This document shows positions 34,697 to 63,900 of a DNA stretch of 64,000 nt, in pieces (positions within the stretch are counted from its first letter, which is position 1; every line of letters begins with the position of its first letter). The DNA lies in the NCBI GenBank assembly GCA_009103225.1, contig RHPI01001037.1, forward strand, positions 1,402,916 through 1,466,915, written 5' to 3'. Both the position numbers and the translations under genes were made by a program. Below the pieces are notes generated by a model. That model ran no database searches, was not told where the DNA came from, and saw only the letters and a list, made by a program, of their open reading frames with translations. This DNA is from Chlorokybus atmophyticus (Eukaryota > Plantae > Mesostigma and Chlorokybus algae).

Positions 34697-37600
34697 CTAC
34701 CAATCCTCCTCATCATCACTGACAGCCTCTCCGCGCTCAAGCTTGGCCTTGCGGATCTTTTCCCTCTTCTTCTTCTCCTGTCTGCTGAGCTCCTTCTTGG
34801 GAGCCTTCACCTTGATGGTATTACCCAACGCATCCAGCACCTCCTCCTGAGGCTTCCATTCCAGCTTGTCACCACCGCCCACAATGTTGGGCACACCCTT
34901 GGCAGTCAGCTTGCCATCAGCAACGAGCCAAGACTCTGGGCACAGCTCACCAGCGAACTCTGCAATGGCAAACATAACAGATCAGCAACCCCAGCATGAC
35001 AGGCACAGCAAAGCAAAACAAACAACGCCTAGCACAGGGCAATGTAGCTGTGTGAAAACGAACCTCGGTTGTGGGTGATCATGATGACACCACCGCCAAA
35101 CTCCTTGATGGCACCAGCAAGGGCACCAAGAGAGTCGCGATCCAAGTAATTGGTGGGCTCATCAAGCACCAGCATGTGGGGGTTGTTCCACATAGCAGCA
35201 CCAAGCACGACCTTGACCTTCTGGCCACCAGACAGACCACCAATGTGCGTATGTGTGCTGATCTCGCGCTCCAAGCCAACATCCATCAAGTGCTTCTCAA
35301 TGTTGGCCTGAGTGAGGGGCTTTGCGACCATGCCCATGCGTGCAGCTTCCTTCATGTCAACATCGTTAACCAGCTTGGAGAAACCCATCTCCTCCAAGAA
35401 ATCGCGGGTGAGCCAGCTGTTCTTGTCAGGGCCCATGCCCTTCCACGACACCTCATACTCGTAACCCTTCTTGAGCTTGCGCCTGCTCACGATCTTGTCA
35501 ACAACCTTCTTGATGCCGTCATGCATGAACTGCGATGCCATCTTCTTCTGCTCCTCTTCTGTGAGGATGCGTGTGACCTTCTCCTGTGACTCCCTATCCT
35601 CTCCGGTGGCATACCGCCACTGAATATACTCATTGGCAGTCTTGTCCAGGTGCTTCTCAATGTGATGGAAGGCGTGCTGGGCAACGTAGGCAATGCGCAG
35701 GTTGGGGTGCTTCCAGACAACACCCTCTTGGGGCTCCATCTCTCCGGTCAGAATCTTGATCATGGTGGACTTGCCAGCGCCATTGGCACCCATGACGACA
35801 ACACGACTGTTGAGTGTGCAGAAGATGGAAACACCTTCCAGAACCTTGCGGGTGGTGTTGGGGTAGGTGAAGCCGACCTGGTGCATCTTCAGGATGGCCC
35901 TGTCCTTGCTCTTGATACCCTCCAGGAAGCCAGGCTCTGGCAGGGAGAACTTGATGGTAGTGTCAGCAAGCTTGTAATATGAGGCAGCCTCTGGCCGGAC
36001 CTTGACCAGCTCAGAGAGGTTGCCGCGATAAGTCCTCAGCTTGCGGCCCTCGTAGTGGATGATGTGTGTGCAGACAGTGTCTAGGAAGCCAGAGTCGTGG
36101 GAGACAATCATACTTGTGACGGTGGGAAGGTTGGTCAGGTAGTTTTCCAACCACGCGACATTCTTTACATCCAGATGGTTGGTGGGCTCATCAAGAAGCA
36201 TGATATCTGCCTTATACAGCATGGCGCGAGCTGCAATGCAACCAGATCAACTGTTAGCAATCAGGCTAGTGGTTGTAAACCAACGTATCCAGCACAGCAT
36301 GGCGGCAAGCTTACCAAGGGCAAGCTTCATCCTCCAACCACCGGAGAGAGAAGCAACGGGGGCCTTCTGCATCTCCTCGGTAAAACCAACGCTAGTGAGT
36401 ATGCTCTCACAAACGGAAAGGTCAGGGTGGATGTCGGCCAGCTCAGGCGATGTGACAACAAACTCAATCACCGCCATCTCAGATTGGGTGGCATCAATGT
36501 CGTGCTCCACATAGATGGTGCGAAGCTCCTCTTTCGGAGGGAAGCCCTCCAGCTGACCATTGGCAATGGCGCGCATGAGAGTGGACTTGCCCGCACCGTT
36601 GGGACCGCACAGACCATAGCGCTTGCCGCGCTTCAGGTGCAGCTTGGCGTTGTTCAACAGAATCTTAGCACCATAAGCCAAGCTGAAATCGCACTTGCAG
36701 AGGTCCTCACCCTCCTCATCATCGTCCTCAGCCGCATTTGCAGAAGTGTCCTCAATGCACCAGTCAAGAACTGCCTTAGCAGCGTTTTCAGCAGCATCCT
36801 TGTCCATGAAGGCAGCCAAATACGGGACAATAGTCTGCAGCACAGAACAGATGTAAGCAACTGGTTGTGGACAACGTTGTTGCAATGCAAGATGTTGGAA
36901 AAACAGCTGTCACTGACCTTGACCCATTCGCTGGTCTGGAAGTCCTTGATGGCCACCAGGTAGCAGCACAGCTCGCTGACATACTCAAGGGTCGTCAGGG
37001 CGAAGTCGTCCTTCCAGTTGCCGGAGAGATTTTCCTTGAATGCAGCCAGCATGGCCTTCTTATCGACCTTCTTAATTTCAGCAACCTCCTTGGCCTTTGC
37101 CTCCTCCTGCACGCGGACAAGAGTGGCATGTGCCCGCGCAGCGACTGTGCGGGCTTCGGGATCAGAGATCTCATTCTTGGCACGCTCCATGTCTGGAAGA
37201 AGCTTTGGAAGGAACACAGTGGCATCGGTGGGATCATCTACAAGCTGAAAGCCCAGACAACAGAGTTAGTCACTGAGAGTGATGCAACTGGAGCCACCTA
37301 GACACCACAGCGCAGAAACAGTACCTTGGCCATGTTGTCAATGATGACAGCTGTCTGACGCTTGACAGCAGTCTGGCGCTCACGAAGACCACGAATGAGG
37401 AGAGGCACCATGATGGCAAGCGTGGGGGCCTTTACGGACTGCACGAAAGTAGTTCCAGCCAACTTCCGAACGCACTCAGGCGTCTCATGAGGGCGAGCCA
37501 GACAGCTAATGAGCGCTGGCACAAAGGGCTCAATATCCTTGTTATCTTCAACGCTGCATAGCTCCGTCATGGCCGTGAAGGCAGCAGTCTGCGGAACAGA

Positions 37601-39723: not shown

Positions 39724-42064
39724 CAGTCCACCCTCGATGTAGTGACCACGGATGTTTCAAGAGAAATTGTCACTGCAGAGAGTTGTCAAGACTTCGATGT
39801 AGTGACCAAGTGTCACTGTAGCGCATTACAGCTATGTAACGACAGTCTGTCGTTATAACGAGGTATGAGCCTGCTGCTAGACTATCCTCTATGTAGTGAC
39901 TACCGGTCACTAGATCGAGGTGTGCATACAAACTCAGCATGCATTCATTCGTGTCAAGTGCAAGCATGCCAACACACTGCACATGTGTGTGATGCCTTCG
40001 CTACAATACTCTATATTAATACATACATAATGAACTCCACACAGCCACAAATGAACGAATGTCCACTTGCCGCGTGCGCATTGTGTTAACGGCCGATGCG
40101 CGCAACGTCTTGGCAACGATGCGCTGCATATCCAAAGCATCGCGAGGTGTGAATGTGGATGCATTGTCGTTGATGAACACTTGCAATCGACTAGCTATCA
40201 AGCGAGCTTCCTATAATGGAACGCACGGCGGGGGGATGTTATCAGCATTAGCGTCGCCCGGATCGTTCTCTTACATCAAATGAGCCAGGCTCTGTACCCA
40301 ACTCCACCAGCTCCTTCACGCTCAACTCCGCCTCAACTTCATTTTCTTCAATCAAGTCGACATACTCTTCCATGGTCGTCTTGTCTTTGAGGTCAAGACG
40401 ACCAATGAGAGAAGCAAGCTCATCAGCATCATGCTCCTCCAGGCGTGTTGCAGAGCGCTCATCGGCTTCACGGATGTCGGCATCCCATGATGATGGAAGG
40501 ATCCCTGTCTTTCTCCAACAGTTGCAAATGGATTGTGGCTCCACCGATTCCCATGCACTCACCGCCCACTACAAAGCTTGCTTGATGTTGGCTTTAAAGG
40601 TTGAGACTAGGGTGGAAGGGTCATTGGATTCTGACAGCAGCCACTCGATCAGCAACTTTATGTAATGAACCTTTAAGCAAGCTATTATGCCTTGATCTAA
40701 GGGCTGGACTTTGGAGGTGGTGTGGGGAGGGAGGCACACCAGCGTCACGTGAGTAAGCTTCGCAATGTTCAGGCCATGAAGTTCCCCTTTTTCAACATGA
40801 GCGTCCGGTAAAATGTGACGGGACACATTGTTTAGCAGCAGCACGATGTGCTTCTCCGCCATTGACACGCGTGCATTCAGCTTCTTCACCCCGTGCAAGA
40901 AGAACTTGGTAGTCATCCATGCTGAGGCATTGTTGTAGTAGTCCACAAACTTGCATAGATCGAATTTACCAAAGCAACGTGGTTTGGCATACTTGTGAAT
41001 GAAGACCACTGGTATGGCATGCGCTGCTTGTCGATGCCATTTACGTTCGCAACAAAGCCAAGCAAGCGTGACACGCTTTTTGCATTTCTTCCGGCCTCGC
41101 ACTGCTTCTGGAGCCAGCGTGCGAACTGGCATTTGTCGATTTTCTTACAGTCCAGCCTCAGCAAAGTTGTATGTGGTTTCTGGTGTCGCCCCAAGCTCGT
41201 CCATTACTAGCGGCAACTTCGCACGAGCCCTTGCCACACCTTCTTCGTCGGCATCGGCGGGCTTGTCTTGGTATTTAACGCATCTGATGTTATGCCTAAA
41301 AAACAACGTATGCTTAATATCAAGTCGCAATGATATACAGGATAACTACCCTTCCAACGTCTTACCTTTCCTTAAACTTCCAACCAGCCAGGGGATGCCT
41401 TGAACGCTGCCTCGTCAATGTGCATCTCATCTCCAAGCTTGATGGCTTGTGTAGTCAGCATGGCGTCTGAGATGTCGACCTTGCATTGCGCTTCTGCGAA
41501 TGTTGATACAGCATTAGCATCATCTAGTCAAAACATGTAAGTGTACACGCATGTGTACTAGTATGTAAGTAGCATTGCAGCAACAGACTACTACCACCAC
41601 CAGCACCAACACCAGCACACCACCACCAGCACCAGCACCAATATGCAATCGGCAGATTGCAGCACAAGTATACAACCAGCAAGTGTATGCAAGTGTGTGG
41701 GAATGTATGCGGGTACACGCATGTATGCAAGTGTGCAATCAGCCAATTGCAGCAATGACTACAAACCACATGAGGCCGCCCCTGCCGCTGCCGCCGCCGC
41801 CGCCGATGCCACCTCTACCGTAGCGGCTGTGACAGCCGCTACCTCCACTTCGGCATTTGACGCCGGAACCTCGCTGCTATCTAACCATAATCAATGGATT
41901 CCATGCTATGTACCCTTGATATAATGACATTTGCTATTAGCACTACCTGTCGTTACAGAGATTGTGATAGTCACTACAAATCATATGCGAATCGGTTATG
42001 CAAGTAAATGTCACTATTGCGAGGGTGTCATTGAAACGAGTGTGATTACAGCGCGGGTAGACTG
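39724..42064 (-). mobile_element. pogo/Tigger-like DNA transposon 1, inserted at a TA inside the outer TIR
   Basis: TIRs CAGTCCACCCTCGATGTAGTGAC and (reverse complement) CAGTCTACCCGCGCTGTAATCAC match at 18/23. Left flank TA, right flank CA. A TAGTGAC-type motif recurs subterminally. Confidence 0.85.
40248..41520 (-). pseudogene. Decayed pogo/Tigger (CENP-B HTH + DDE_1) transposase with a 70-nt GT-AG intron (41296-41365)
   Basis: FKASPGWL..FKER/HNIR, YNFAEAGL*, KKRVTL, NNASAWMT, IVLLLNN, LPPHTTSKVQPLDQGII and ICNCWRKTGILP. In-frame stops, a frameshift and altered catalytic Asp residues. Confidence 0.88.
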
Positions 42065-42098: not shown

Positions 42099-42482
42099 GG
42101 CTTTGTTTGACACCCCCCTTTTACGGACAAGAATCTTATCTTGCCGCAAGATAGTACCCTAATACACCCCCCCCCCTCATTGCGTTTGCGTAGTAGGGGA
42201 AGACGTGGTGCGTCGGGGTCGAACGAACGGTGTTGTGTTTGGTCGTGCTCTGTAATTGATGGACCATATACACAGCATCGACGACGACCGCCGTGCGTTG
42301 GGCGGAGTACAGTCTACTCTCCTTATAAGTATACACTTGGTCCTCAAAAATAATATACTTATAAAATATATATGTTTACCTTCATATAAGTATGTAATAT
42401 GTTTACATGCATATCAGTATAATAAATACTTATACACAGAGTCAGCCCATTTGCAGCACCTCTTTGTTATAAACATAGATAT

Positions 42483-43085
42483 TGTCATGTCTGTTGTCCG
42501 CGCATGGCAGCCATCATCGGGCCTGCCTACATCGAGACCCTCGCCCGGCCTACCAGCATACCGACCCGCTTACGGCACTGACCAGTAGCTAGGTCATAAC
42601 TCTAGGATAGCTCATGACCATAGCCTACATAGGCACCGCGCGTAGGTGATTAGTTGTGAAATCAGTTGTAAGTTGTGTTCTACATCGAGTGGAAATTTCT
42701 ATGAAAATAGCCTCGATATGACCGTTAGCTTATGTTCTGAACAGTCATGGTTTGACTTGTATAAGTAGTCACAATGATCACCGGATCAGCTGGTGACACT
42801 GTGAGTAAGAAGGCTAAGAGCTTATGAAGCGACTTGAACTACGAACACGCCGTCCCAGTTATTAGGAAACCCCTCACCGTGTGGAAGCTTGTGCATGCTC
42901 TTGTGCACCGCGCTTGTCATTGCTGTGAGCTTGGTGTGCCTGGTTGCGGTGTGCGTATTGGCATCAGTTAGGGCATAGCATCCACGTGTTGCTTGCTCAT
43001 TCACCTCACTTAACATTGTAACACATTTTCCACTCATGCAAAGAATTGTATAAACAGCACTACCTATAATAGTGGCTTGTTGACT
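42483..43085 (+). repeat. Terminal repeat A1 (603 bp)
   Basis: Aligns end to end with 52706-53310. About 60 differences by eye, roughly 90% identity. Confidence 0.93.
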
Positions 43086-43306
43086 TACAGTGTCACCCTC
43101 TTTGCTCAAGTGAGTGTAGTTGCATTCTGTTCTCTCATCAGAAGTGCAGCTTGTGATGTTTACATCTCAGTGCATTGTTGTCATCGCCATCGCATAGTGC
43201 GCACAAGCACTAGTGTCACACAGTTTTGGTATAGCAGCATTGGTGATATCATTGTAAGAGTACAAACGCTCTACCCTTCATACACCTTCACCATTGCATT
43301 AGCTGT

Positions 43307-45150
43307 ATGAGCAGGCCCACCCCTTTCTCGTCAATAGAAGAAGGGAACCTCAACAGCTGGAGCCCAACCTCCAACCTTACCTACGAGCGCGCAAGTGAAG
43401 GGAGCAGTCACCGTAGCAGCAGAGGCTCACGCCCCGTCTCCGACTTCACCTCGTTTCACTCTACTCGTCGTCAGCGAGCATGTCCACCTCCGTTGGACAG
43501 TGACGATGACAAGATGGAGCCTTTCAGCTTAACCAACTCTCTGCGCTTCTCCGAACGCTCTGGCACCACCTGACTTGGTGAGTTCATCATCAAGTTCCAC
43601 TCTCAGATGCGGCAGCAAGCTCTCAAGAGCAAAGACTGGACAGATGAGGTATCGTTTCATGTGTCCGCTCGATACCTTGATTACGAAGCACATGATGTGT
43701 GGAAGTCCGTTGCTGAGTTGCACAAGATTGATGGCTACGGCGAGCTGGCCAGCACCATAGCCTCCACATCAGTGCACAGCCCATCAACTGCTGTCCCCGT
43801 AGCAGCGGCCCCACCAGCCTCATTCACTGTTCTCATCCTAACCGCAGCCTTGAAAAAGGCAAAAAATGAAGAAGTTGAGGTGGTAGTGGCTTTTTTAACT
43901 CCTGCAGAGATCGAGGCCAACAAGGCTGACCGCCGGATTATAATATTCAACCGCACCGCTGCTATCATTAAGAAGCAACCAGGGGAGCAGCAAGCTGCAG
44001 CGTTGGAAACGGCTACTCCTCTGCTTCCAGCACCGGGCTCGCGCGCTCCAGCAAGAGGCAGTGTTTTCACCCTCGAGTCAGTGGCATTGCGGGCACCCGC
44101 GCTTATGGTGGGCATTGCCATGTCGGACTCTCTTTTAAAATACCTCTACGCCGCACTTCGGCGTACGTTCCCACCTCAAACCAACATCAAGGTGGAAGAG
44201 TTGAGGCACTTCGACGGAAGCCCAACGAGGACCCTCTTCGGCTGTATTCGCGGTTAGAAGGGTTGCTTAAAGACACCAATTACAAGATTGTCAGTAAGGA
44301 GGCGGCAGCAGTGGTGTATGTAGCCGAGTTGGATCCCACCTTGAGCGAGTCAACGCGCCTGACGCTGAATTACAGCAGGCCCCTTGGCTACACCCTTAAG
44401 GAAGCTCTTGAGACTGCACAAGCCATCCTCAAGCGCGCGGTGTACGAGAAAGCAGTGCTGAACACCAACCGCAGTGCCTCACGGCCTATGGCAGGCACAA
44501 GTGCAGAGCCCCCTCAATAAGACCGCAGCCGAGAGACTCAAGGAGTCCAAAACAAAGATAAATGGTCAGCTCATGCTGCCCTTATTGCTCCAGTGTTGTG
44601 CCATCGGTGTGGTCGGCATGGCCACTATAAAAAGGAGTGCACCGAAGACTATGGCAACCTTGTGTGCGACTACTACTGCCACAAGACGGGACACTTGGAG
44701 ACAGTATGCTGGCTCAAGTTCCCCGAGTTGCGGCCCTCTATTGGCTACAACAACAACAACAGCGCTGGTGGCTACCGCGGCAACAACAACAACAACAACA
44801 ACGGGGGCTACCACAACAGCAACAACGCTGGCGGCCACAATAACGGCAACAACGCTGTTGGCAACCACCCCAACATCCCCAATGCCGGCAACCGCAGAGA
44901 GGAGTCGGGCTACAGAGGGAAACCGCTGCAGCGCAAAGGACCTAAGGGACGTCCTCGTGCTAGAGCGGCGGTTGTCAAAGCATCAGCTCCTCCACCAGCC
45001 GTCGACAAAAATGCAGCCCTTATGGCGCGCGTGGCACAACTGGAAGAGAACAAGGAGCAGGATTATCAAGCCTGCTACTCTGCCCGCTGGGCTAGAAGAT
45101 GGCACCCAACCGAGACAGGGACACTCCCACGCCATCTCGTGTGCAACTAA
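43307..45150 (+). pseudogene. Gag-like ORF remnant with two CCHC zinc knuckles (about 44599-44709) and an Asn/Gly-rich tail
   Basis: CHRCGRHGHYKKEC and CDYYCHKTGHLETVC. Collinear ORF pieces 43307-43573, 43607-44257, 44263-44520 and 44593-45150 are separated by stops and one frameshift. Confidence 0.8.
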
Positions 45151-47369
45151 CAAGACGTGCGCGTAGAGAAGCTGGCGCATCATCGACAGCGGTATCGTTG
45201 GAAGCCACAAGTGGTGCTGCCTCCGCATCCACAACCACTATTGGGACGACGCCATCAATGACACCGTCGGCATTCACACCAACAACGACAGCAGGTGTAA
45301 GCACCCATGGCACCATGCTATCTCCGGTGATGGAAAGCACCGAAGCCGCGGCAGCCATGGTCGGCGGGTTCGTGGGTAGTGAAGCCACCACTCCTACCTC
45401 CATTGGAGCCACGGCATCAGCCACGACTGCTGCCACCCTCACTGCTGCCACCTCGATCATGACTCTTGCTGCAGGTGCCACAACCATCACTTGAAGTGAT
45501 GTTGCACCCACGGCAATACCACCTGACGTTCGAGCAGCGCCGCCACCAGCACTTGATGTCACTCAGCAAGCACCACGCGAACCGCAAGCAGACCAAGCTT
45601 GGGTATCCATTCTGCACAACATCAAGCCCACCACCATTGCATACGGACCTGGGGGACAGTGCACTACACGCGTGGCACGCGATGATCGCATCCTGCCTCT
45701 ATCACCTCCAGGGGACCACACGCTGCCGGAGCCCACCCATCAACATCTAGAGGACGAAATTCTCGCCGGCACTGCTCTGGAGATGAGGGATTGGCTCTTC
45801 GGGGTTACCTACCGGCGACCTGCTATGCTGGAGCTGGCCATACAGCTGTTCTTGACGTTGCACGCAAGGGTGCAGGGCGCACCCAGTCAGCCGCGACAGC
45901 CAATGCCCGCGCAACAGATTGAGTAGTCACCGCTTGACCCGCTCGGACTTCAGCGCCGTCAAGTACAAGCCCTCATGGTGACCACGTCAGACATGCCGCT
46001 GGGCACTGACCCTGCGCTTCGAGGGCTCATTCAGGGAAGCCGGCAGGAGCGGTTTTTTTGTCCTCGATCAAGCACATCGCTATCGATTGAGTGGACCAAG
46101 CAACACAAGTTGACGCACGCCGTTAAGTGTACGAGGCAAAACATGCTGCTTTAATGCCGACCGCGGCGCCGGCTGATGTCGACAGCACCTCCAATACACT
46201 GACCGTGGTGTAGCCCACATCAACTGCAGTCGCTCCGCGAAGGCAAGCAACTGTTGCGGACCAAGCGAGGGCGTTGGCGCAACAATTGAGGGGGGTAATT
46301 GCCCTGCTGCTGCCTCCTTTGGTTGAAGACATGCCCGAAAATCAATGCGATTCAGGACGAGGGTAGTACCTTACCCCACATGAGGACACCACACAATGAG
46401 GAGGAGCTGGTATGGTGGGAGAGCAACAACTCCGTACCGCACTCATACGATAAGCAGTTATGCTGCACAGGCCTGAGGGCAGTGCATTACAACAGATGAT
46501 GGGGATGCGAGAAGGCAGTGCCACCTGTGCACGTCGTGACATGGCTAGTCGCCAATCACCCTGCCGTCCCCATCTTTACCTTTGGCAACAGAGCATCATG
46601 GTTGGGGGCATCCGTTCGCTCGCTGTGACAAGCATACGACGAGGCCGCCACCACGGCTTCAGACACATTGGAGGGAGTGCAAGAGGCAATGCTGCGGCTG
46701 CCAGGGGTAGAAGCTACACGGCAACCACTGCGCATCGCCATTGCTTATGAGCTACACGCACGACAGACTGACCTCCAGCGCACTATACGTGCACGCGCCA
46801 TGATCGTACTCGATGTGTGTGTGGTACATGGAAGGTGGGATGCCTACACGGCAGGAATATTGCGAGTCCCCACCATCACCCACGACATGCGGCGACAGCT
46901 ACTACACGCAGTGTACCTGCAGCCCATGCCTCAATACCATCATTGGACTGACATGGACACGGAGCCCACAGCCACGTGGGAAGGGACATTGGTCAGAGAG
47001 GCGGCTTGTGCCGTTTGATGGACGTACGCCGCAGAGGAAGCTAAACGCGAGGCAGGCCCACAACCACCGAGTCCTCCGAGTTTTCCTCCACAGCCATTGG
47101 GTACACCTGCGGGCATGATCCCATCCTCGCAGAGGCAGCATCCACCTGCACCGCCACTACAATCGTCGCCGAAACCCCCAGCACCAAGGCCTCCCCGTGT
47201 CTACCAACCACCACGACAAGGTCGGTTCGGCAGAGGGAGAGGGCAAGAAGAGGGTCCTCCAGACTCAGCAGGCAGAGGAGCTTTGGCTGCACTGCGCTCA
47301 GCACCCCCAGCTGAGAGACATGAGGCCCCGATGGTGGCAGCCCGCACGAAGAGGCTGCTCATCAACGCT

Positions 47370-47756
47370 AACGCGGCCATGGTTGCCAACGAAGGCAAGC
47401 ACGTGGCCGTCAACGGTCAAGCACCCAAGCGTGTGATGCAGAACACCGGAGCACAGCCTGTCATCATCCGGCGTTTCCTTGCTCGGTCCCTTGGCATCAC
47501 CAGCTCAGACTTGCTGCCTTGTTCATATGTGTTGGACGCCGCTACCGGCAGTTGTGACAAGGTGATGGGGGTTACCAAGGAGGCTCTCTGCATCCGGTTG
47601 ACAGGGCTGGACCCAACCCACACCACGGAGATCATTCAGCAATGCGTAGTCGCCAACGCCGACTCCTTCGGATTTCTGCTTGGACAGGACTTTAACTTCC
47701 CCGTGGGTATGGGCCTGGACTACTTGACAGAGCGGGCTTGGTTCCGACCACATTAG
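47370..47756 (+). pseudogene. Retropepsin-like aspartic protease remnant
   Basis: VMQNTGAQPVII (D-T-G with D to N) and downstream FGFLLGQDF (the xLLGxDF motif). Confidence 0.7.
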
Positions 47757-48174
47757 GACGAAGATGACGGAGAGGTACAGGGCTTCCTGCCCCTCGAGTT
47801 GGTGTCGCAAACGCGTGCCTAATGCAAAGTGGCTGCCGCAGCCATACGCCGTCACGTGCGCGCGTGAGAGGCTGCATCGGCCACATATACCAGCGCTCGC
47901 ACAAGAGTTGCTGCTGTTGCCGCCGCCCCTTGCCGCACCGACGACACCGCTCCGATTCCTTGCACTAGAGGAGCAGGAGGATGCCACCGTCGAAATGGCA
48001 TTACAATCTCCGGCCGAACGCCGTTGGCGTGCGCAAGTGGACGCGCACCTCTTGCTGATCCAACCGCTGGTCACCTCACGCTTTCATCACAACACGGGAC
48101 ACGGCAAGGTGCAAAGCGAGCACATGGTAGCCACCTGGGTGGTGAAGTTCCATACCTTCCGGCGACAACAGAGC

Positions 48175-49113
48175 ATCACAGTGTTGGTGCTGTTTGGAGG
48201 CATCGGCAGTGGCCTCGCTGCGGTCCTCAACACAGGTGTCAAAGTCACCAAGTAGTATTGTTGTGACCCCGACCCGCACGCTCAAAACAGCCCTTACGCA
48301 CCATCTGCGCAAGCTGCACGAGCGCTATCCACAGCAACTGCCCTTATCGGCGTTGCAAGGCAGCCTCAAGGCATTGCCACACGACATGCGGCTGATCACA
48401 GAGGACCACTTGCTGTCCCTCGGCAACATCGACTTGTTCATAGCTGGATGGGAGTGCCAAGGACACTCCAGGGCAGGGAAAGGCCGAGGCCTTAAAGACC
48501 CTCGCTTAGGGCCGTTTTGGGAGTTGATGAGAGTTATCCACCTCCTTCAACAGCACCAGATCTCCAGGCCCCTAGGATACGTCGTCGAGAACGTGCACTC
48601 GGAGGATGATAAGCGTCCCCATGTAGCCTCCAGCTACCGACAGGTGTGCTCCATCCTTTGGCATCCACTAAAAGTGATTGCAGCACGCCATGGCTCCCGT
48701 GCACATAGTGTGCGCGGCAAGCGGACAAACTTAGCCACCACCGAGGAGCTAATGGCAGCAGAGTTCACACGCAGCACTCGGTCACGCAATCTCTTGATCA
48801 ATGACATCCTTGACCCCGTAAATCCCAACCGGTCACACGCCTTGACCACAGCCACTTCTACCAGTGCAACCAATCGGGGCAACCGAAACGCGCACTTCCC
48901 ACCTTGATGTCCTACCCTGGGTCGTACGCCTTTCGCAATGAAAGTGACGGCATGGTCTTCGACACCACAATAAAACAATTCACGGAACCCAATGCATGTG
49001 AGCGCGAACGCACCATGGGCTTCTTCCCAAACAGTATCACAGAATCCCAGCTGACCGACACTCAGCAATGTCAAGTGCTCGGCGCCATTGACAAAAACAG
49101 CATGGTCTGGTTA
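48175..49113 (+). pseudogene. C5 cytosine DNA methyltransferase catalytic domain inside Pol
   Basis: Motif I TVLVLFGGIGSG; III HDMRLI; IV DLFIAGWECQGHSRAG (catalytic Cys); V GLKDPR..PFWE; VI YVVENV; VII/VIII ARHGSRAHSVR; IX EPNACERERTMGF; X LGAIDKNSMVWL. Motifs are in canonical order, with one stop and two frameshifts. Confidence 0.9.
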
Positions 49114-49379
49114 ACAGGAGCTGCGTTTCGCGTTGCAGGACCGCCATATGTCCTTTAAAGATCTTGAACACCTGGCTAGGGGGTGGGCTGATCGCGTTGC
49201 AAACACCAAGGCAGCTCACACAGCCCTCAAGGTGGCCCACATGGAGGGGCAAGCCGCAGTAACAGTGGAAGACATCCCCGTGGTTGCCAAGGCAACGTCA
49301 TGGGACCATGCTATTGGCCTTCTTGCCACAGAGGACACACGAGAAAAGCTGGATGCTCTCCTCAACACGTGGAGGAGGC

Positions 49380-49995
49380 AATTCAGCTCTATCGTGAAGG
49401 AGTTGGGTACATGTTCAGTGTACCAAATGGACATTGAGCTAGTGGACACCGAGCCGGTATTTCGACGGCAATACAGGCTCTCCAAGTTGGAGGAGGACCT
49501 GGTGGAACAGAGATGTAAGGCTCTGCTGAACGCAGGCCTCATTGAGGAGTCCACATTGGACTTTGCATCCGCGACGGTCGTGCCGTTGAAGAGAGATTCA
49601 GCAGGCAACTTGAAAGAACGGCGTATGTGTGGCGTCTATCACTCTCTCAACAACAAGACTAAACAAGACAGGTACCCAATGCCCACAGCAGAAGGTATCT
49701 TTGATAATATGGGAGACTGCACAGTTTCGGCATCCTCGACATGCGCCAAGGGTACAATCAAATCGCCATTAAGGACGAAAACAAGCACAAGACCTCCTTC
49801 CGAGGCAACCGACAACTGTACCAATGGAAAGTGATGCCGTTTGGGCTGAACAATGCCCCCGCCAAGTTTCAGCGCGTCATGGACAAAGCCTTGAAGGGAC
49901 TGCACTTCGCGCGATGCTACGTTGACGACATCTTCACCTTCAGCCGCAACAACAAAAAGCACCTACAGCACATCGAGGACGTGCTGAAGAGACTC
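49380..49995 (+). pseudogene. Gypsy-type reverse transcriptase remnant
   Basis: PVFRRQYRLS, ASATVVPLK, RRMCGVYHSLN, DRYPMP, MRQGYNQI, KTSF, MPFGLNNAPAKFQRVMD and CYVDDI; one frameshift. Confidence 0.95.
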
Positions 49996-50339
49996 AGGGG
50001 TGGGGATGACTGTGCATCCCGACAAGTGCACCTTCTTCACTCACAAGGTACCCTACCTGATACACATCATTGTGCCCCACGGTGTGTACGTACAGCAAGC
50101 ATAGGTGGAGGCCCTGGCAGCTATCCCTGCTCAAATGGACCTTACGCGCCTGCGCGCCTTCTTGGGCCCTGCTAACTACTTTTGCCGGTTCGTGGACTTC
50201 GCAAAGATTGCGCGGCCCCTCAACGAGCTACTAAAGAAGAAAGTGGAGTTTGCGTGGAAGGAGCCACAGCAACAGGCTTTTGAGGAGCTAAAGGGCAGGC
50301 TCATCGCAGCTCCCATCCTTCAATGCCCTGACTACACCA

Positions 50340-50706
50340 AGCCCTTCATCCTCCACACCGACTGGAGCAAGCCCGAGATGGGGGCTATGTTGGTGCAGCA
50401 CAATGAGAACACGAAGGAGCGGGTGGTGTCATACGCCAGCCGAAGCAACAACAGCGCCGAGGCCAACTACAGCAGCTACGAGGGGGAGTGCCTTGCTGCG
50501 GTGTGGGCTATCTCCTTCTTCCGTCTATTTCTCTTCGGTTGATAATTTCAATTGATCACCGATCATCAGCCACTCGAGGTGGTTGATGACCAACCAACAC
50601 CTGACAGGGAAACTTGCTCGCTGGGCCCTGCTGTTGCAGGAGTATGACTTCGAGATTGACCACCACGCGGGCCATACCAACCAAGACGCCGATGGCCTCA
50701 GTCGCA
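50340..50706 (+). pseudogene. RNase H remnant
   Basis: FILHTDWS, VVSYASR, NYSSYEGECLAAVWA, TDHQPL, KLARWALLLQEYDF and DADGLSR. Confidence 0.93.
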
Positions 50707-51139
50707 AACCTCACCTCAGCACCAACAATGCAACCGGAGCTCGGCATGAGCTCGGCCCTGCTGCAGCAGCTCCCACCGTGGCAGCCATGTTGCTGTGGCC
50801 GCGTTACGCTCAGGGCGCAAAACCAACACCACTGCCACATCAGCGGCGGAGGAGATTTTTGCCCTTGAGTCTACTGGCCCCACAGTGACCACACCCTTAG
50901 GGGACGCCCACGCGCTCGACATTGTAGTCGTCGACACAGAGCTGGCCCACCGACACCAGGCAGGACATATGGTTAGACAAGCCATCAATCTCCTTCCTTC
51001 AAAGTGGCCAGCTTCCCTTCGGCATAAATGCACAAGAGAGAGATTGTGTCAACCAACGCACCTGCCACTATTGGTGGGCAGACGACGAGCTGTATCGCCG
51101 TTCTCATGACGAAGACAAGGACCCGACACCAGCCACACG

Positions 51140-51810
51140 CGAGGGCATCATCACTGCCCTCCACATTGAGCTTGGACACTTTGGTGTCAAGCGTGCGGTG
51201 AGCCTAGTAAGGGCACAATATTGGTGGTATGGGTTGTCTAAGCAGGTGCAGGGATTCATCAGTCATTGCCAAGAGTGTGATATGGTGCGCGCCATCCTCA
51301 ACACACGCAGCACCACCTTGCACCCACTCCCCATATTTGGTCTGTTCTATCGTTGGGGACTCGACATCTTGGGAGACTTGGCACCCTCAGCACGTGGCAA
51401 CCGTTACATGCTGGTCATGATCGAGCACTTTTTCAAATGGGTGGGCTGGTGCCACTACCCGACAAGAGCAGCAGGGGGGGGTCTCAAGCCTTCCTCTCCC
51501 ATGTTTTCAGCCGATTCGGCAGCTGCGGTCATTTCCGACCAAGGCACAGAGTTCAGAGGGGAGTTCGACACCCTTTTGGACAGATGCTACATCGGTCATC
51601 GCCGTACCTTGCGTAACCACCCCCAAGCCGATGGTCTTGCCGAGCGTACAGTGCAGTCCATAAAGAAAGCACTCCGCAAGTACGTGCTGAAGTATATAAA
51701 GAACACCTAGGATGACCATCTTCCGTGGGTGGCCTTTGGATACCGATTGTCATACAGGCAGCTCTGCGCGAGTACAGCCCATACTACCTGATGTTCGGCC
51801 GCCCGCCATT
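51140..51810 (+). pseudogene. DDE (rve) integrase remnant with HHCC finger and GPY/F-like motif
   Basis: LHIELGHFG...HCQEC, RWGLDI, ISDQGTEF, HPQADGLAERTVQ and SPYYLMFGR. Confidence 0.93.
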
Positions 51811-52255
51811 GCTTCCCTTTCGTGCACAGCAGGAGGTAGATTGTGTGGTGAACAACCTCTACAATCCCATTTGGATGCACCACGACATTACCACACGCGC
51901 CGCGCTATTCGAGCGCACCGTCGATATGGCCTTCAACAACCTACGCATCGCGCAGCACCGCGACACTTTGCGCTACGAGCGCATGCGCAGCGGCTTCTAC
52001 AAGGAGCGCCAACGACGGTTTCAAGCAGGGGACTTTGCCTACCATGGCATGGCAGCCACCAAGGACACGCTTGGCACCTCCGTGGGCCGCACCGTCTACA
52101 AGGTACTCAAGGTGTACCCCACCGGGGTGCTGGACCTCCTCGGTCAAAACGGAAAGAGGTTGAAAGACAACATGATAAACTGCGCACCATGTCACCTCCC
52201 GTACGTAGCTGGCTTTGGGCGCATTCAGCACCCTCGCCCCGCCCGCAGCACGCGA

Positions 52256-52390
52256 TATGAATGCTGCGGCAGCACCGACGACAACGCACTCATGATGCTT
52301 TGCGACGGCTGTAACAAGGGCCTGCAGTGCTACTGTCTTGAGCCCCCATTAGACGCAATACCCATGGAGGAGTATTGGTGCGACGATTGC
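52256..52390 (+). pseudogene. PHD finger at the C-terminus of Pol
   Basis: YECCGSTDDNALMMLCDGCNKGLQCYCLEPPLDAIPMEEYWCDDC shows C4HC3 spacing, with the first Cys and the His substituted. Confidence 0.85.
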
Positions 52391-52458
52391 CGCGCCAACG
52401 GCCCTCCTCACTTGCGTTAGCAGCTGAGCCCTGGAGCTGGAACCTCCTCGAAATATCA

Positions 52459-52469
52459 GGGGGGTGGCT
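52459..52469 (+). other. Polypurine-tract-like G6 run immediately before repeat B1
   Basis: TCAGGGGGGTGGCT followed by TGTTG, the usual position and form of a Gypsy PPT. Confidence 0.55.
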
Positions 52470-52703
52470 TGTTGACTGTGTGTCCTACAGAACAGCATGT
52501 ACACTAAGGAAAACACCGACTCCACATGTCCGTATTACCCAGCAGCAGCAAAGCAGCTCCACAAAGCACTTGTCGTCATAAGAGCGGGGTTATCTTTTGC
52601 TTTTAATACACGTTACAGCATGTTGTAGTAGCGTGCTTAGCGAGCGTGTCTCTTTCTGCAGCTGTCCGAAACAGCGTGACCCTCGACTCTCCTCGACCCG
52701 ACA
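52470..52703 (+). repeat. Internal repeat B1 (234 bp, TGTTG...CGACA)
   Basis: Aligns with 53303-53524: about 90% identity plus a 12-nt indel. Confidence 0.93.
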
Positions 52704-52705
52704 GC

Positions 52706-53310
52706 TGTCATGCCTATTGTCCGCGCATAACAGCCTTCATCGGGCATGCCTACATCGAGACCCTCGCCGGGCCTACCAGCATAGCGACCCGCGCGCGGCA
52801 CTAACCAGTAGCTAGGTCATAACTCTAGGTTAGCTCACGACCATAGCCTACATAGGCACCGCGCGTAGCTGTTCAGTTGTGAGTTCAGTTACAAGTTGCG
52901 TTCCATACCGAGTGGGGATTCTGTGGAAAAAATAGCCTCGATATGACCATTAGCTTATGTTCTGAACAGTCATGATTTGACTTGTATAAGTAGTCACGGT
53001 GTTCATCGGATCAGCTGGTGACATTGTGAGTGAAAAACCTAAGAGCTTGTGAAGCGACTTGAACTACGAACACGCCGTCCCGGTTATCAAGAAACCCCTC
53101 ATCGTGTGAGAGCTTGTGCATGCTCGTGTGCACCGCGCTTGTCATTGCTGTGAGCTTGGTGTGCCTGGTTGCGGTGTGCGTGTTGGCATTAGTTAGGGCA
53201 TAGCTTTCACGTGTTGCTTGCTCATTCACCTTACTTAATAGAGTAACACATTTTCCACTCATGCAAAGAACTGTGTAAACAGCACTACCTATAGTAGTGG
53301 CTTGTTGACT
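52706..53310 (+). repeat. Internal repeat A2 (605 bp)
   Basis: Copy of A1; homology starts exactly at TGTCATG. Confidence 0.93.
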
Positions 53311-53524
53311 ATGTGTCCTACGGCACAGCATGTACAGTAAGGAAGACACCGACTCCACATGTCCGTATCACCCAGCAGCAGCAAAGCACTTGTCGTCATA
53401 AGAGCGGGGTTATCTTTTGCTTTTGCTACACGTTACAGCATGTTGCAGTAGCGTGCCTAGCGAGCATGTCTTTCCCTGCAGCTGTCCGAGACAGCGTGAC
53501 CCTCGACTCTCCCTCGACCCAACA
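53303..53524 (+). repeat. Terminal repeat B2 (222 bp, TGTTG...CAACA)
   Basis: Copy of B1; homology ends exactly at CA. Confidence 0.93.
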
Positions 53525-53745
53525 ATACACCTGTATGTAATGTGCGCTTGTTGCACATGTACATGTGTATATGTCTGCATAATTGCTGAGTCACGTGCGT
53601 GTGCTGTGTTATGGTAGCTGATGACCTTTCTGTGGCATCATGCGAATAAACTACGCCTTAAGCTCAAAAACCTTTGTAAGGCGAAATTCAGCACTCTACA
53701 CAAATGTAAAGCTATATTCACACTCATCTTCACCAACATGTATTA

Positions 53746-56285
53746 TCAAATGCGGCTGAAAGAATGAGTGAATGGTGCTCTGCCTAGAGGAGTGGAGACA
53801 CCCAAGATGTGCAAGTGTGTCAACTTGTTTCTCAACTTCCGCAGCGCCATCTGCTCCACTTTATTGATGTTGTCAGAGGCTTCAACAACAAAGGCATCAA
53901 GCGCATCCACATGCTGCATCGCTTCTCTCAATGTCCGCGCGCGAGGAGGCTCGTTATCGGGGTCATCTGTGCATGCTACTTTCAAAAACACGGTCATAAC
54001 AACTTGACTGCATGTAGCAAGAGCATTACACCAACGCGCTTACCTTTCTCATCCTCGTTATCATCATTAGAATGGCTTCAGGCCAACGGATGCAAGTATC
54101 TCATCATCCGTTGTAGCTGCTTCCGTGGGCAATGTCTCATCTATATCCACAAACTCTTCGGCGCTGATGGTGTCTGCCGATGGCAGCTTCATGCATGCCA
54201 CGAGCTGCTGTAAGTTATCTACCTCCTATGCATAGCAGCGCTGCATGTCAATGTAATAAAACATGCATCCAATCAGCAGAAACCAACAACAAAACAAGTA
54301 TACCTTGGTCAATGACGCACGGATAGGCGCTGAGGTTGTAATTGGCTGTAGTAGCACACCAATCAGCAGGTATCACTCTGCTCTTGCGCCAGCAATTGCG
54401 CATGTTAGAAGGATTGACCTCCATCCAAGCCTCGCGGCTCCACATAATGGCGTCGCGCACATCCACCTTGGTCTTGCTAAGGTTGGAAGTGGGGTTGGCG
54501 TCAAACTCTGCCAGCATGTGTGCGACCAGCTTCTTGTTTTAGCTGCAAAGCACTTCGTATAAACAAGTGCCACGATGACAACATGCACACATAATGACAA
54601 GGTTCTTCACCGCATCTTGAATGCAATGATGCCCGCGTCCATGGGCTAAATGACTGATGTTGTGTTTGGAAACAAGAACAACTGACAACTATCAGATTGG
54701 ACATGGTGAGGCTCGTGAAGCTCTATTTTACCCCAATCGCTGCTTGCGCGCAAATGTGCGTTGATGCGTTGTCCATGAGCACCAGCAAGTATCGGCACGC
54801 CGCATGTCTTCATTGAATGCACACAGCCATCGTGTAAACACATGCACGCCCATTGCTGCAAATCAGCATAGCGCACGCTTGCACAAGCGCGCGCACGCGC
54901 ACGCGCACGCAGCACATGCATCAAAAATCAACAGATTATGCACATACATATGCATGCAAGCACAACACAAACAATGCATATCAGTCCAGCATGCACGCAC
55001 GCGCACGCACGTGCATGAGCGTCCGCGCAGATTGCACAGATACATGCATGGGTTGATCACATAACAACTCACCTGATGTGTCATCCACGCAGTTGAGTTG
55101 TACTCGTACTTCACTCCGACTCTCATTGGTTGCCATGTCTTACCAAAGCATTGAGGCTGCTTGAATTTCCAATAAACATTACCAGACGCTTTTCTATGCC
55201 GCTCGCATCCGCGCACAAGACAACAGTGCATCGCTGCTTGTGTTTTTTCCATTCTGCAACAAAACAAATAATTGCTACTGCAAATCTCATGCACGGATGT
55301 GACACACTTAAGCAATGCATGTTGTTAATTCAGCAAAAAGTTGCAGCAAGATGTGCTTCTTACCCGCATGCGTCCAAGGCTGCAACTACAAGTGTGCGAC
55401 TTGGGCGTGCATGGTAGAACAACCCCAATTCATCCATGTTGAAAGTGTCATCGGGGGTGTAATCTTTCAATAGAAGGGGCAGCTCCATCATTGCCAAGCG
55501 CACACCATCCATGTCATCATCGCCTACCTCTCCGTGTAATGCATAAGCCTTGACGCCATGACGCTTCTTGAAATCATCAAGCCAGCCCGAAGAGAACGAC
55601 AAGTTGGGTGCTATATCGATGCCCGCAGCATCAGCAAGAACTCGTGCTTCACCAACCAAGATCTCATCAGTAAATGTGTCCTTGCGCAACCGCGCCGGAC
55701 CAAAGCATGCATACAGCGCTGCTTTTAGCTCTGGATAAAGGGCTTGTCTAACCTTTCCAAAAGCTACACCACGCTTACCACCCTAAGCTACCACCTCATC
55801 GATTGTGTCCTTTCAGCGCAAAATTTTAGACAGTGCTGGCTGGCTAAGTGTGAGTCGTAGATTGTCTTTGATGATGAGCAGCATGTTACTCTGCTTCTCG
55901 CCCGGATGTGCGTCAACCAGTGCAATTATTGCCTTCTTCTCATGCACAGTGTATGCTCGGCGCTTGACGCCCTTGCTGCACACGCATACAAACACATCCA
56001 CTTACTCATGCTTGCTTCATGTGACCTACAAAGCACAGTGTTGTTGCACAAGCAACTTACTCCGCGCCCCCCTCTACCACGCCCGCCGCGTTTTCCTGCG
56101 CCACCTCGTGCAGGCGCAGCGCTGCTACCAGCGTCCCCACCATTACATGCATCAGATTGGTCTGAGTTATGGCTGTCGTCACTATCCTCCATGGTTGCAG
56201 TTGGATGCGGCACTGCCCCTGCCGCCGCCACGGCCGCCGCCGCCACCTCTGCCGCGTGATGCACAGGCGCAGCGACGTAATGCAA
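53746..56285 (-). pseudogene. Decayed intron-containing pogo/Tigger transposase (CENP-B-type HTHs + DDE_1)
   Basis: KRRAYTVHEKKAII...LSQPALSKIL, YPELKAALY, SFSSGWLDDFKKRHGV, TFNMDELGLFY, CTVVLCADASG, YNSTAWMT, LLVLMDNASTH and MRNCWRKS. Internal stops and frameshifts. Confidence 0.9.
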
Positions 56286-59200
56286 AGTAGCGCGACGTTG
56301 CGACCTTGTAATGCTGCGAGAAGCAAACTTCTTCTTATCCGTATACTCTCTAGCAAAATCTACAGAAATTTAGCAAGAATCGTATATGTTTATGTGGCTA
56401 CAAGTATCACTTATAACCAACAGAATGTATCTGAGAAACCACCGGTCCCCGCCAAAGATATGTTTATAGGTTATTTATACTTACAAAGACGATACCTATA
56501 AGCCGAGTAGACTGTAGATACAAGACCAAATAAGATTAAGTGTTGATGCCACATAACTGCGACGTGCCCGTCACTTGGCGGAGAGAGTAGCCGATGTTAA
56601 TTTTCGGTCGGACCTTTTGCTTATAAATAAAATGCATGGGTCAACACCATTGCAAAATCTATTGTCCCTATGATGATATTGTAAAATGATGAAAAACATT
56701 TCACTACCACATATAGTTAAACACGCACTACATTATATGCATGAAAATATTGCTCATGGTAATCACAACAGGCATGTTGATAACACTATAATAAAAGCAT
56801 ATAATTGATCACGTTGATCGCGATGTAATGTAACATAACTTCATACGAAGGTTGCACGTAGCATGTTACTAAAACACTTATGCGTGGTGTAATGTGCACA
56901 TTACAAATATGAGTGTATGTTTATGTGCATGCAAAATTTAATCATATACAAATTAGTATAAAATTCAATTTTATCAATTGCACTTGCATTATGCGTGATA
57001 CTATGGCAAACTAGTTTACATTTGTTTATATATGCATTGTAGGCATACACTTTTACATGTAAAATTATATGCATTGTATGCATACACTTTTACATTTGCA
57101 TATTATGCATCAAGTTTTACATGCATCTTGTACACAAATTCATCATTGAAATATTGTTATCACATATATTGTGCTTCGTGTAACAAAATACATATAAATT
57201 GCACAATTTAAACGTCACCATTAATATTATTAGATGATATAACATGATATGACCTTACTCTACAGGGCATTACCAATTATAAATTAATAAATAAAATATA
57301 TTGTTATCAGATGTCAACTCATTTTATGATACTGATTCATTCAACCCATAAAATAACATGGTGATAATGCTATGTGTTGTTGATTTTAATCAATTACAAC
57401 CCCACTTATTGACCACTTCATGTATAAGCGCGAAGCGCGACGTTTTTATGAATGTGTATTCGCCCAGTTGTTATAATGACGAAATCTTTTCGACATCATC
57501 AGTATCATGCATTATGTTTCGTGAGTGTCATATATCTGTTTATGTTAGTGAGACATAAGTCATGTCCCCAAATTACGGTATGATGCGTTGTCTTACATGC
57601 AGCAACGTTATGAACAAATAAATAAATAATAGTTCTTCACGCCGATGAGGCACACGCAAGGGTTCTGGAATTGCATGCTTTATACAGATTGTGAGCAATT
57701 TTGGCAAAACAACATACGGATACAGTGTTAACCGCGGTCATTACAACCAACGACGCACACTTCAAGGAAACCACGATCCGGACCCCGAACTGAGGTCACA
57801 AACCTGAGCACACGGTTGTGTAAGCAATTGTATTCTTGTGCTTATCCCCGAAAATTTGAGGCCCGACGGTATTATTACTCCGTTAAGGCCCCGAACAATC
57901 AAATGAAAGCCGTAGTAGGCGGGGGCTTTGTTTGGATGATGTATAGCCCGGCGGCCAAACGAAATCGTTTACAATGATGTAAATATTCATCTAAACGGAT
58001 AGGGTGTGATTGCTGTTAGTAGGATAGCTTGAATTCTTTGAAGGTATGGAATGCCCTCCAACCTCGTATCAATGGATACACGTTGTAAAACGCGTTTTGA
58101 CGCGTGACTGCGTCGATGTCTGCCTACGCGGGCGACATTTGATACTCTGATGATCGTTTTCGGTCGCCGTTGCCGTGTCGCGCCAAAAATTCTTTGCGCT
58201 TTTTATGCAGCGCTCGGCAACTGCGTTCAACGACGCTACCACCTAATTCATGTACAATTTAAGTTTACGCAATGCGGCATAACTGTTGCGCCACGTATCA
58301 TATATGGTACCAAATCAATAGACCGACTCCAAAGCAATTCATCGATATTGCATACAAAGTCCGAACCGTTCCATTGATGTGCTTATTGAATGCGGTTTTT
58401 TAAAACGTTCTTGGGCGATATAATACAACTTAGTTAAATATGTTATCGTGAGAGGGGTAGGTTTCGACAGTGATAATTAATGGTATGAGGATCACGTAAG
58501 CGAACTTCTCTTAAGCCCAGCAATTGAAGATTAGACGTAACCGTTCCCTTACATACATTTATATGCGGCTATATATGTAATACACAATCATCTGCTGCTA
58601 CATTTCACACGTATATCAACTAGTATAGGATATCCTTAAAACAGATCCAAATGAACAATATGCCATCACATGTAGCCATTGTACACGGTATGCACACTGT
58701 GCTCCTTATTGTCATTTATCGGCATATATATTTGAGCTAATGCGTGACTTAGACATGTTCTTTTTACGGCCACGATCTTATGTTTGGCAAATCTAATGGT
58801 TCAACGCTAGTACTCGCCACCCAGCCAATGAAAGGCAGCAGGTCGCGCACACTACCGCGCAGCCCGGTAGTTGCGGGTGCCATGTGTGAAAGCCCATTAC
58901 TGATGGCCTTTGCGCACGTGTGTAAGTGACCTTGCTTGCGTGCAGCCGGACGGACGGACCAAACAGCCGCACCACTAGTTTGCGAGAGGGGGGGGGGGGG
59001 GGGGGGTCGGGCAAATACGGTAAACGTACACTACCGATTTATGTACACATCAACTTACCCCATTAGAGTCTTCCTTGATCAAGTCCTCCATGTAAGGATG
59101 GGGATCAAATATGGGTATGAGTCTGCACGATGAAAAGCAACTAAGCACATTGAGAATAATTATATTATAAATTATATACTTTATTAACTTTAGCAAACTT

Positions 59201-62743: not shown

Positions 62744-63900
62744 GTGCAACGCTTAGGCATTTGCGTCACCAAGTGTAATGACACGGTTGTGGCCTTGAAC
62801 AAGCACGAAGTTCCTATGCGGGGAGTCGTGCGCTTGTCCGTGCATACGCAGGGCTACCATGCTCAGCTCAAGTTCTTGGTCATCCCTGTTGTGGATGTCA
62901 TTGCTGGCAGCCATTGGGAGCAAGCATGTAGCTTGCGCACGTACGCAGACATCAAACTTTGCAGTGTATGCAAAGGGCGAGTCGTGTGACCTTGCGCGCA
63001 GATGGGCATGCTGTCGTACCCGCTGTAAGTGATGACAGATCTGGTACCGATGTCTCATGTTGTTTGTTGAGTGCTTTGCAGGTGAACAGGGCGGTTCGCC
63101 TTGAAGCACAACCCCTTTTAGTGCTAGTCCGGCCATTTGCCACAAACAGCCCAACCACTGCAAATGATAACACCAATGGCAAACCTCAAGACGCGGCTGA
63201 GCGAAGCCTCGGTATTCAGTTCATTGCATTTAATCAGTGCTACCATAATATACGAATTACCTCAGAAGATGAGCCTAAGACAGCGTTTAAGACGCCTGTG
63301 GGTCACTTCCAATGCAAAATACTCATTTTTTGGCTGACGAATGCGCCAGCCATCTTTCAAGCTATAATGAACCGAGTGTTCCATAAGCTGATTGAAAAGT
63401 AAGTACTTGTATACCAGGATGACATCATAATGTTTGATAAGGACCCTGAGTTTGCATGCTGTACATGTATGTGAGGTTCCGGACACATTGCGTGCCAACA
63501 AGTTCTTTACGTACATGCCCAAATGTAAGTTTAGGACAACTATTGGATTTCGTGAGGCACATTGTGAGTGCAAAGGGCGTGTAACCTGATGCCAAGAAAG
63601 TTGCGAAGGTTAAAGAGTGGCCTGCCCCTAGGATGTGCACAAGTCGCGTGCCTTTTTAAGTCTTGAACTATTGTAAAAAGTACATTCAGGGTTATTCATC
63701 ACGAGTAGCACCCCTCACCTGTTTGCTAGGTGACAAAGTTGTGTGGAGGTGGGCGCAAGGGCATGAGCCGTTGAGTCCATCAAGAAGGCCTTGGTAATAA
63801 CACCTGTGTTGTAATGAGATTACGGGCCCCTGCCGAGTGCGTGCCTCGCGCAAGGTTGACGCAGTCAGCAGGGACCGTAATTTCAACAAATGTCGGTCCA
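62744..63900 (+). mobile_element. Heavily decayed second Ty3/Gypsy pol relic (protease C-terminus, RT, start of connection); probably continues beyond the window
   Basis: RGVVRLSVHTQGYHAQLKFLVIPVVDVIAGSHW (protease-like), YHNIRITSEDEPKTAFKTPVGHFQ...LTNAPAIFQAIMNRVF and VLVYQDDI, then PDAKKVAKVKEWPAP. Confidence 0.82.

Follow-up and report, generated by a model that had tools for sequence, protein, structure and literature searches.

Cytosine methyltransferases (DNMTs) carried by retrotransposons are known from the work of de Mendoza et al. (2018; PMC5890265), in which KnitGypsy-Dnmt3 of Klebsormidium nitens is described as a Dnmt3 within Gypsy Pol, with repeats that are "the same as that of a DIRS retrotransposon" (legend of their Figure 4c). 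The same paper describes SymbioDIRS-Dnmt3 of Symbiodinium, which also has a Dnmt3 in Pol, encodes a tyrosine recombinase in a separate ORF, and has a repeat order given as A-coding-B-A-B (legend of their Figure 1e). According to that account, SymbioDIRS-Dnmt3 methylates CG sites de novo in yeast; the K. nitens enzyme produced no methylation in yeast, a result that is inconclusive by the authors' own account. Methylation of the cDNA is put forward there as the authors' own hypothesis, and the term "PHD" is absent from the main text and three supplements. The EpiLTRs of Cymbomonas and Euglena, as presented in a preprint (bioRxiv 10.64898/2026.05.21.726589), are likewise LTR retrotransposons that encode a chromatin reader along with a cytosine methyltransferase; however, their DNMT is sister to DNMT4 and is accompanied by a DAM domain and a chromodomain, and the preprint holds them distinct from streptophyte Gypsy-DNMT3. 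In the passages of PMC12344493 (2025) and of the preprint (2026) that deal with DNMT3-bearing elements, these are given for streptophytes and dinoflagellates only.

Here we describe an element of Chlorokybus that lies in a 64,000-nucleotide stretch of genomic DNA (the window) and is very probably a Gypsy-Dnmt3 element. Like KnitGypsy-Dnmt3 as published, it combines an unrearranged Dnmt3-type domain in Gypsy Pol with DIRS-like repeats and a charophyte host, and the DNMT of KnitGypsy-Dnmt3 is under purifying selection, as it is in the relatives of the Chlorokybus element; the hosts, however, are of different lineages. With SymbioDIRS-Dnmt3, in the form described, it shares the location of Dnmt3 in Pol and the A-coding-B-A-B repeats, but it has a protease and a DDE integrase in place of the separately encoded recombinase and ends in TG...CA, and 4-bp duplications flank some of its relatives. 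Membership in the Gypsy-Dnmt3 kind rests on architecture (Dnmt3 inside Gypsy Pol, DIRS-like split repeats), enzyme type and host group (charophytes within streptophytes), KnitGypsy-Dnmt3 being compared by its description. A preliminary description of the locus had placed it in the class of de Mendoza et al., and this assignment stands; its proposal that the pairing with a PHD finger and split repeats might mark a new lineage is weakened, because KnitGypsy-Dnmt3 as published already has such repeats. This kind of element is thus already published, and what is added here is the wider lineage and the structure of the ends, more than the dead copy in the window. Our overall reading, which we consider likely, is that of a decayed charophyte Ty3/Gypsy element with a DNMT3-type enzyme between protease and reverse transcriptase in Pol, an enzyme that in live copies would methylate the element's own new cDNA.

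Structure of the Chlorokybus Element and Its Surroundings

We confirmed that positions 42483-53524 of the window hold a decayed Ty3/Gypsy element with a DNMT3-type domain between protease (PR) and reverse transcriptase (RT) (Table 1). The presence of gag, the order PR-RT-RNase H (RH)-integrase (IN) and the DDE type of the integrase are those of Ty3/Gypsy; two full flanking LTRs were not found, the repeats being arranged as A-coding-B-A-B. No TGG-type primer-binding site was recognized by eye after the first copy of repeat A, and ARAGORN predicted no tRNA within the 64-kb window. An identity as a DIRS/PAT/Ngaro tyrosine-recombinase element was rejected, since none of the 12 ORF pieces matches a recombinase and an integrase is present. 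The NTG form of the protease and the many frameshifts in Pol indicate that this copy is dead; the preliminary description had likewise regarded it as inactivated by a stop and frameshifts, to which frame breaks on either side of the DNMT, towards PR and towards RT, are added here. Between gag and protease (45150-47400) lies a low-complexity, Ala/Pro/Thr-rich, coding-like stretch of ~2.2 kb.

Table 1. Features of the Chlorokybus element, in window coordinates
Feature	Position	Strand	Evidence or remark
Left target-site duplication ATAT	42479..42482	+	3 of 4 match right copy ATAC
Repeat A copy 1, element start TGTCATG	42483..43085	+	90.4% identity to A2, 602 columns, K2P 0.105
Broken gag region, CCHC zinc knuckle ~44599-44646	43574..45150	+	PF00098 21.2 bits, cut-off 20.8; ORFs
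Aspartyl protease, NTG vs catalytic DTG of relatives	47403..47690	+	PF13650 E 5.8e-4, below cut-off; family profile E 3.5e-17
DNMT3-type C5 cytosine methyltransferase	48166..49122	+	tblastn, PF00145, family profile; DNMT3A best match of family profile and of relative's model
In-frame stop TAG in DNMT	48253-48255	+	
DNMT frameshifts	near 48290 and 48817	+	
GWECQ, motif IV with catalytic Cys	48446-48460	+	
ENV motif	48587-48595	+	
RT and RNase H, frameshifted; YVDD 49918-49929	49562..50645	+	PF00078 E 4e-19, PF17919 E 1.8e-30
Frameshifted integrase with H2C2 zinc finger, DDE core	51129..51761	+	PF17921 E 5.7e-13; family profile E 2.2e-70
PHD finger, end of Pol	52259..52390	+	PF00628 27.5 bits, cut-off 24
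G-rich polypurine-tract-like run, 5' of repeat B	52458..52464	+	
Repeat B copy 1, ends GACA	52464..52703	+	93.0% identity to B2, K2P 0.075
Palindromic B1/A2 junction GACA-GC-TGTC	52700..52709	.	3' terminus of element followed, after 2 bp, by its 5' terminus
Repeat A copy 2	52706..53310	+	Last 14 nt overlap start of B2
Repeat B copy 2, element end AACA	53297..53524	+	
Right target-site duplication ATAC	53525..53528	+	

The element is flanked by two decayed remnants of pogo/Tc5-type DNA transposons (40248-41200 and 54248-56369, - strand; DDE_1 E 6.2e-18, HTH_Tnp_Tc5 E 6.8e-8), and a second decayed Gypsy RT fragment occupies 62932-64000, with no DNMT detected upstream of it within the window. Two host genes were recognized on the - strand: SF3B1 (8494-12093), which has an uninterrupted exon of 1200 codons and matches jgi/Chlat1/4501 at 100% identity over residues 1-420 (next match, 69%), and a gene (35032-37300) for a chromo-containing ABC protein that resembles elongation factor eEF3. 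Chlat1 is the code for Chlorokybus atmophyticus, a charophyte alga.

The Methyltransferase Domain

The C5 cytosine methyltransferase of the window copy is split into three frame pieces, with its motifs in order and unrearranged. In tblastn with the intact relative P0001 as the query, the pieces cover 48166-48396 (frame 1), 48371-48817 (frame 2) and 48817-49113 (frame 1), at 31-42% identity and with an E-value of 6e-47 for the last two combined. The PF00145 profile matched the middle piece alone at 31 bits (E 2.3e-7; gathering cut-off 22), so that the profile check proposed in the preliminary description was passed even without repair of the frameshifts; neither of the outer two pieces, each alone, gave a Pfam match. 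A profile built only from relatives covered positions 2-325 of its 329 in the three pieces (E 2.8e-8, 1.8e-53 and 4.5e-33) and, with PR upstream and RT downstream, the methyltransferase indeed lies between them, as first proposed. PF00145 scores are weak across the lineage, six of 26 long relatives having no match at E<=1e-3.

Among solved structures, a profile of 28 relatives matched DNMT3A best (4e-26), followed by DRM (1.9e-15) and M.HhaI (7.9e-9). The predicted structure of the relative P0014 (pLDDT 93.5) likewise has DNMT3A as its top match (E 5.2e-19, TM 0.70), and all listed top structure matches of this model are DNMT3A and DNMT3B. Judged by the similarity of these relatives, in profile and in modeled fold, the enzyme is a putative member of the DNMT3 family. 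The catalytic domain of human DNMT3A/3B (PDB 2qrv, 6w89) is the best match of the lineage in both sequence and fold; however, the identity is ~24%, GW[EP]CQ stands where the human enzymes have GSPCN, and the lineage has neither PWWP nor ADD.

The form GWECQ of motif IV, which had been called atypical, is in fact the commonest in the lineage (137 of 256 relatives, with GWPCQ in 59), and thus its presence in the window copy is not a sign of decay. Across 184 full-length relatives, the catalytic Cys and the motif VI Glu are kept in ~100%, and the set formed by the Cys, the ENV Glu, the Arg pair of motif VIII and the SAM-binding Gly in 95-100%. The window copy keeps 45 of the 57 columns that are conserved in at least 85% of these relatives. 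The catalytic Cys and ENV are among those kept, and the losses include the Glu in motif I and the first residue of the motif VIII Arg pair. The first stop after the domain is CTT-TAA (49152-49160), where a +1 slip would enter the RT frame. CTT-TAA fits the shifty-stop pattern, and may be either a programmed slip or mere decay.

Relatives and Selection

A single-sequence homolog search returned one relative among 373 candidates and profile searches were therefore used, an exhaustive search of this kind yielding 627 relatives at E<=1e-3. In the 151 relatives examined, the DNMT lies after PR and/or before RT in 23 (the first layout, that of the window) and after RH and/or before IN in 51 (the second layout), the rest comprising three relatives with the DNMT elsewhere and 74 DNMT-only fragments. 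P0359 is a single protein of 2358 aa with the order PR-DNMT-RT-RH-IN-PHD, and P0001 and P0008 have the order gag-PR-DNMT-RT-RH; the view of the preliminary description that the DNMT is integral to Pol is thereby upheld by intact relatives with the domain inside one ORF. Among 30 first-layout proteins with a complete DNMT, 12 are continuous with RT and 17 stop at most 200 aa past the DNMT, some perhaps because the contig ends. In L004 (5083-5091) and L002 (2081-2089), an in-frame TAG-CAGTTA separates DNMT from RT in an otherwise open Pol. The TAG-CAGTTA context resembles a readthrough signal; the upstream DNMT would therefore be produced in larger amounts than RT and IN, and in the L002/L004 sublineage it would reach Gag-like levels. 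A G-patch domain is also present in some second-layout elements (P0045, P0028, P0300, P0307), and two RT-DNMT proteins with AFPCQ/AWPCQ (P0117, P0122) fall outside both clades and are possibly DIRS-type carriers. A search of the ESM Atlas with the Pol of L005 gave only matches under 0.9, none of them assigned to a taxon.

In two public sequencing runs of the host, every one of the 30 bins into which the element was divided is covered by contigs, the DNMT pieces being ~82-89% alike, which shows that other copies carry the DNMT, as the preliminary description had proposed to check; the B-to-A junction of another copy is visible in one contig. None of the joints listed (15 of 20) skips the DNMT, and none of the contigs listed bridges PR and DNMT or DNMT and RT.

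Selection was assessed in metagenome loci, 80 in all, 61 of them with the first layout and 19 with the second. In the former, median dN/dS at dS 0.1-0.3 was 0.37 for DNMT, 0.38 for RT and 0.40 for IN, and at dS 0.3-1 it was 0.33, 0.32 and 0.30, respectively; these pairwise medians include near-duplicate insertions, some of them one insertion assembled twice, and most of the copies behind them are dead (stops interrupt 44 of 48 DNMT domains). By these estimates the DNMT appears as constrained as RT and IN, which points to purifying selection in these relatives, whose loci are not from Chlorokybus. The intact copies and the dN/dS comparison with which the preliminary description had suggested following up the locus are thus available from relatives, with P0359 intact and a DNMT dN/dS of 0.33-0.37.

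Element Ends and the Junction Palindrome

Both ends were seen in five of the 61 metagenome loci with the window's layout, with the repeat order A-coding-B-A-B and TGTCAT...ACA ends; the target duplication is an exact 4 bp in three of them, matches at 3 of 4 positions in one and is absent from one (L008). Nine further loci show the 3' B...B pair. A mirror repeat layout was not seen among the 80 loci, nor was A-coding-B-A-B among the 19 second-layout loci, several of which are short or collapsed assemblies. Of 26 first-layout sequences with a sufficiently long flank, 19 have a motif of the GACA-NN-TGTCA type behind Pol; the motif is absent from 238,540 coding bases. The exact palindrome GACAGCTGTC occurs behind Pol in six of 19 second-layout loci (three of which seem to be one element) and in none of 80 phage loci. 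A second GACAGCTGTC at 37346, outside the element, was taken as chance, 0.10 matches being expected in the window. A 14-nt sequence, GTGGCTTGTTGACT, both closes repeat A and opens repeat B (43072-43085, 52464-52477 and 53297-53310) and is a possible homology for strand transfer or circularization; in relatives only ~2 nt are common to the end of A and the beginning of B.

We favor, with moderate confidence, a model in which the internal junction defines the ends of the element. Both ends would derive from the GACA-NN-TGTC junction, which would be either copied or cleaved; cuts staggered behind each CA at B1/A2 would yield processed termini with 2-nt overhangs, and the DDE integrase would insert the CA-3' ends, leaving a 4-bp duplication. 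A simple 2-LTR circle cut at random should also yield the mirror layout; as this was not seen, a directed, junction-templated route is more likely. The foamy-virus integrase, as described in PMC1180852, provides a precedent for a DDE integrase that cuts a conserved palindromic LTR-LTR junction into processed ends; however, that palindrome is on a transient 2-LTR circle, whereas the one described here is a permanent internal part, so that the parallel is an analogy only. Neither 4-bp target duplications nor a GACA-NN-TGTC junction within split repeats was found for such elements in the literature covered.

Host Range and Phylogeny

Mesostigma viride and two Closterium strains are the named sources of relatives with the first layout. 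In a further first-layout locus, L005, the flanks are AT-rich and a PPR-E-DYW gene has streptophyte look-alikes, which points to a land plant host. The layout RT-RH-DNMT-IN-PHD occurs in Scenedesmus, Haematococcus, Chlamydomonas eustigma and a host with the code Chrzof1, which we take to be Chromochloris. Named hosts thus split by layout without exception, with four streptophyte and four chlorophyte genera or loci, and no match carries the name Klebsormidium. In the literature covered, which leaves out most subscription journals, theses and Repbase, we found neither the window's layout in Mesostigma, Closterium or land-plant-like contigs nor a chlorophyte sister clade with the DNMT behind RNase H; published figures and preprint supplements may list more hosts.

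In the RT-RH tree, which is unrooted and contains no DNMT-less Gypsy, the two layouts separate with 100/100 support (15 and 35 rows), and the window copy falls in the first. In the DNMT tree, with the two RT-DNMT proteins as its sole root and no host DNMT3 included, the second layout forms one clade (SH-aLRT 98) and no clade was recovered for the first. Near-duplicates (21 ids in the DNMT tree, 14 in the RT-RH tree) and about two thirds of the unnamed second-layout rows were dropped from the trees. No usable DNMT-less RT outgroup was found, and IMG/VR returned only weak phage methyltransferases (best E 4e-13), too gappy for the DNMT tree.

Proposed Function and Origin of the Methyltransferase

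In the proposed mechanism, the protease would free the DNMT from Pol inside the particle, and the enzyme would then methylate cytosines of the cDNA, either ahead of integration or in its course, and the copy would thus arrive pre-marked; if DNMT3A and SymbioDIRS-Dnmt3 are a guide, the methylated context would likely be CG. Histone tails would be read by the PHD finger attached to the integrase, which would in this way contribute to target choice. We lean slightly towards methylation of the element's own cDNA as the selected function. Counting against such self-marking are the lack of CpG loss (observed/expected 0.76 in the element vs 0.78 in the whole window), the lack of CG-biased transitions between the repeat copies (10 of 92 CG, 16 of 87 CHG and 29 of 239 CHH sites) and the yeast result with the K. 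nitens enzyme.

An active methyltransferase could instead have been selected for another target, such as the chromatin of the target site, other elements or, after insertion, the element's own promoter, damping transposition and sparing the host. Such an alternative is put forward in PMC5890265 as well and would agree with the element's unreduced CpG content, with a PHD finger that could tether Pol products to chromatin and with the position of the DNMT upstream of TAG-CAGTTA in L002 and L004; however, the DNMT lies inside Pol in both clades and is continuous with RT in 12 of 30 first-layout proteins, which would tie it to the particle and the cDNA, and we consider this target choice rather unlikely. 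It is still less probable that the domain has been retained for a role other than catalysis, for instance binding or shielding of cDNA ends or base flipping: a motif IV that is mostly GWECQ rather than GxPC and the K. nitens result, as published in PMC5890265, would fit such a role, but the near-complete conservation of the catalytic and SAM-binding residues and the retention of GWPCQ by 59 of 256 relatives argue against it. The broken frame on either side of the DNMT could also suggest a secondary insertion or a host-gene fragment trapped in one copy. We give this explanation almost no credence, as the domain has an identical position in intact ORFs and at dozens of loci and is carried by other copies in the two host runs, without a skipping joint among those listed; as an insertion confined to one copy, it is refuted by P0359, P0001, P0008 and L004.

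With regard to origin, we tentatively propose that Gypsy-Dnmt3 is one ancient green-plant lineage that would predate the chlorophyte-streptophyte split, with a single capture of a DNMT3 that later moved within Pol and a range that would take in Mesostigma, Chlorokybus and mosses as well as the breadth of Chlorophyceae. Lacking paired LTRs, such a lineage would have escaped LTR finders; it would combine DIRS-like replication with retroviral integration, its ends arising from an internal GACA-NN-TGTC that the DDE integrase cuts or copies, and deliver pre-methylated cDNA. The two layouts could also stem from two separate captures or from horizontal transfer, given the different positions of the DNMT in Pol, the absence of DNMT-less Gypsy and of host DNMT3 from the respective trees and the failure of the first layout to group in the DNMT tree. 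This scenario appears doubtful to us, since a GW[EP]CQ-type DNMT, a C-terminal PHD finger and the GACAGCTGTC palindrome are common to both layouts, and the named hosts follow the layout without exception.

Surveys that demand paired LTRs, TG/CA ends and a duplication, such as that of PMC6317226, are expected to miss elements of this kind. The palindrome and the 4-bp duplications provide a concrete, testable model for the replication of an integrase-bearing element with split repeats. The lineage also poses the question of whether a retrotransposon methylates its own cDNA and whether this helps or restrains the element, which can now be tested on intact members, including P0359, P0008, L004 and the proteins of Haematococcus, Chromochloris, Chlamydomonas eustigma and Scenedesmus.
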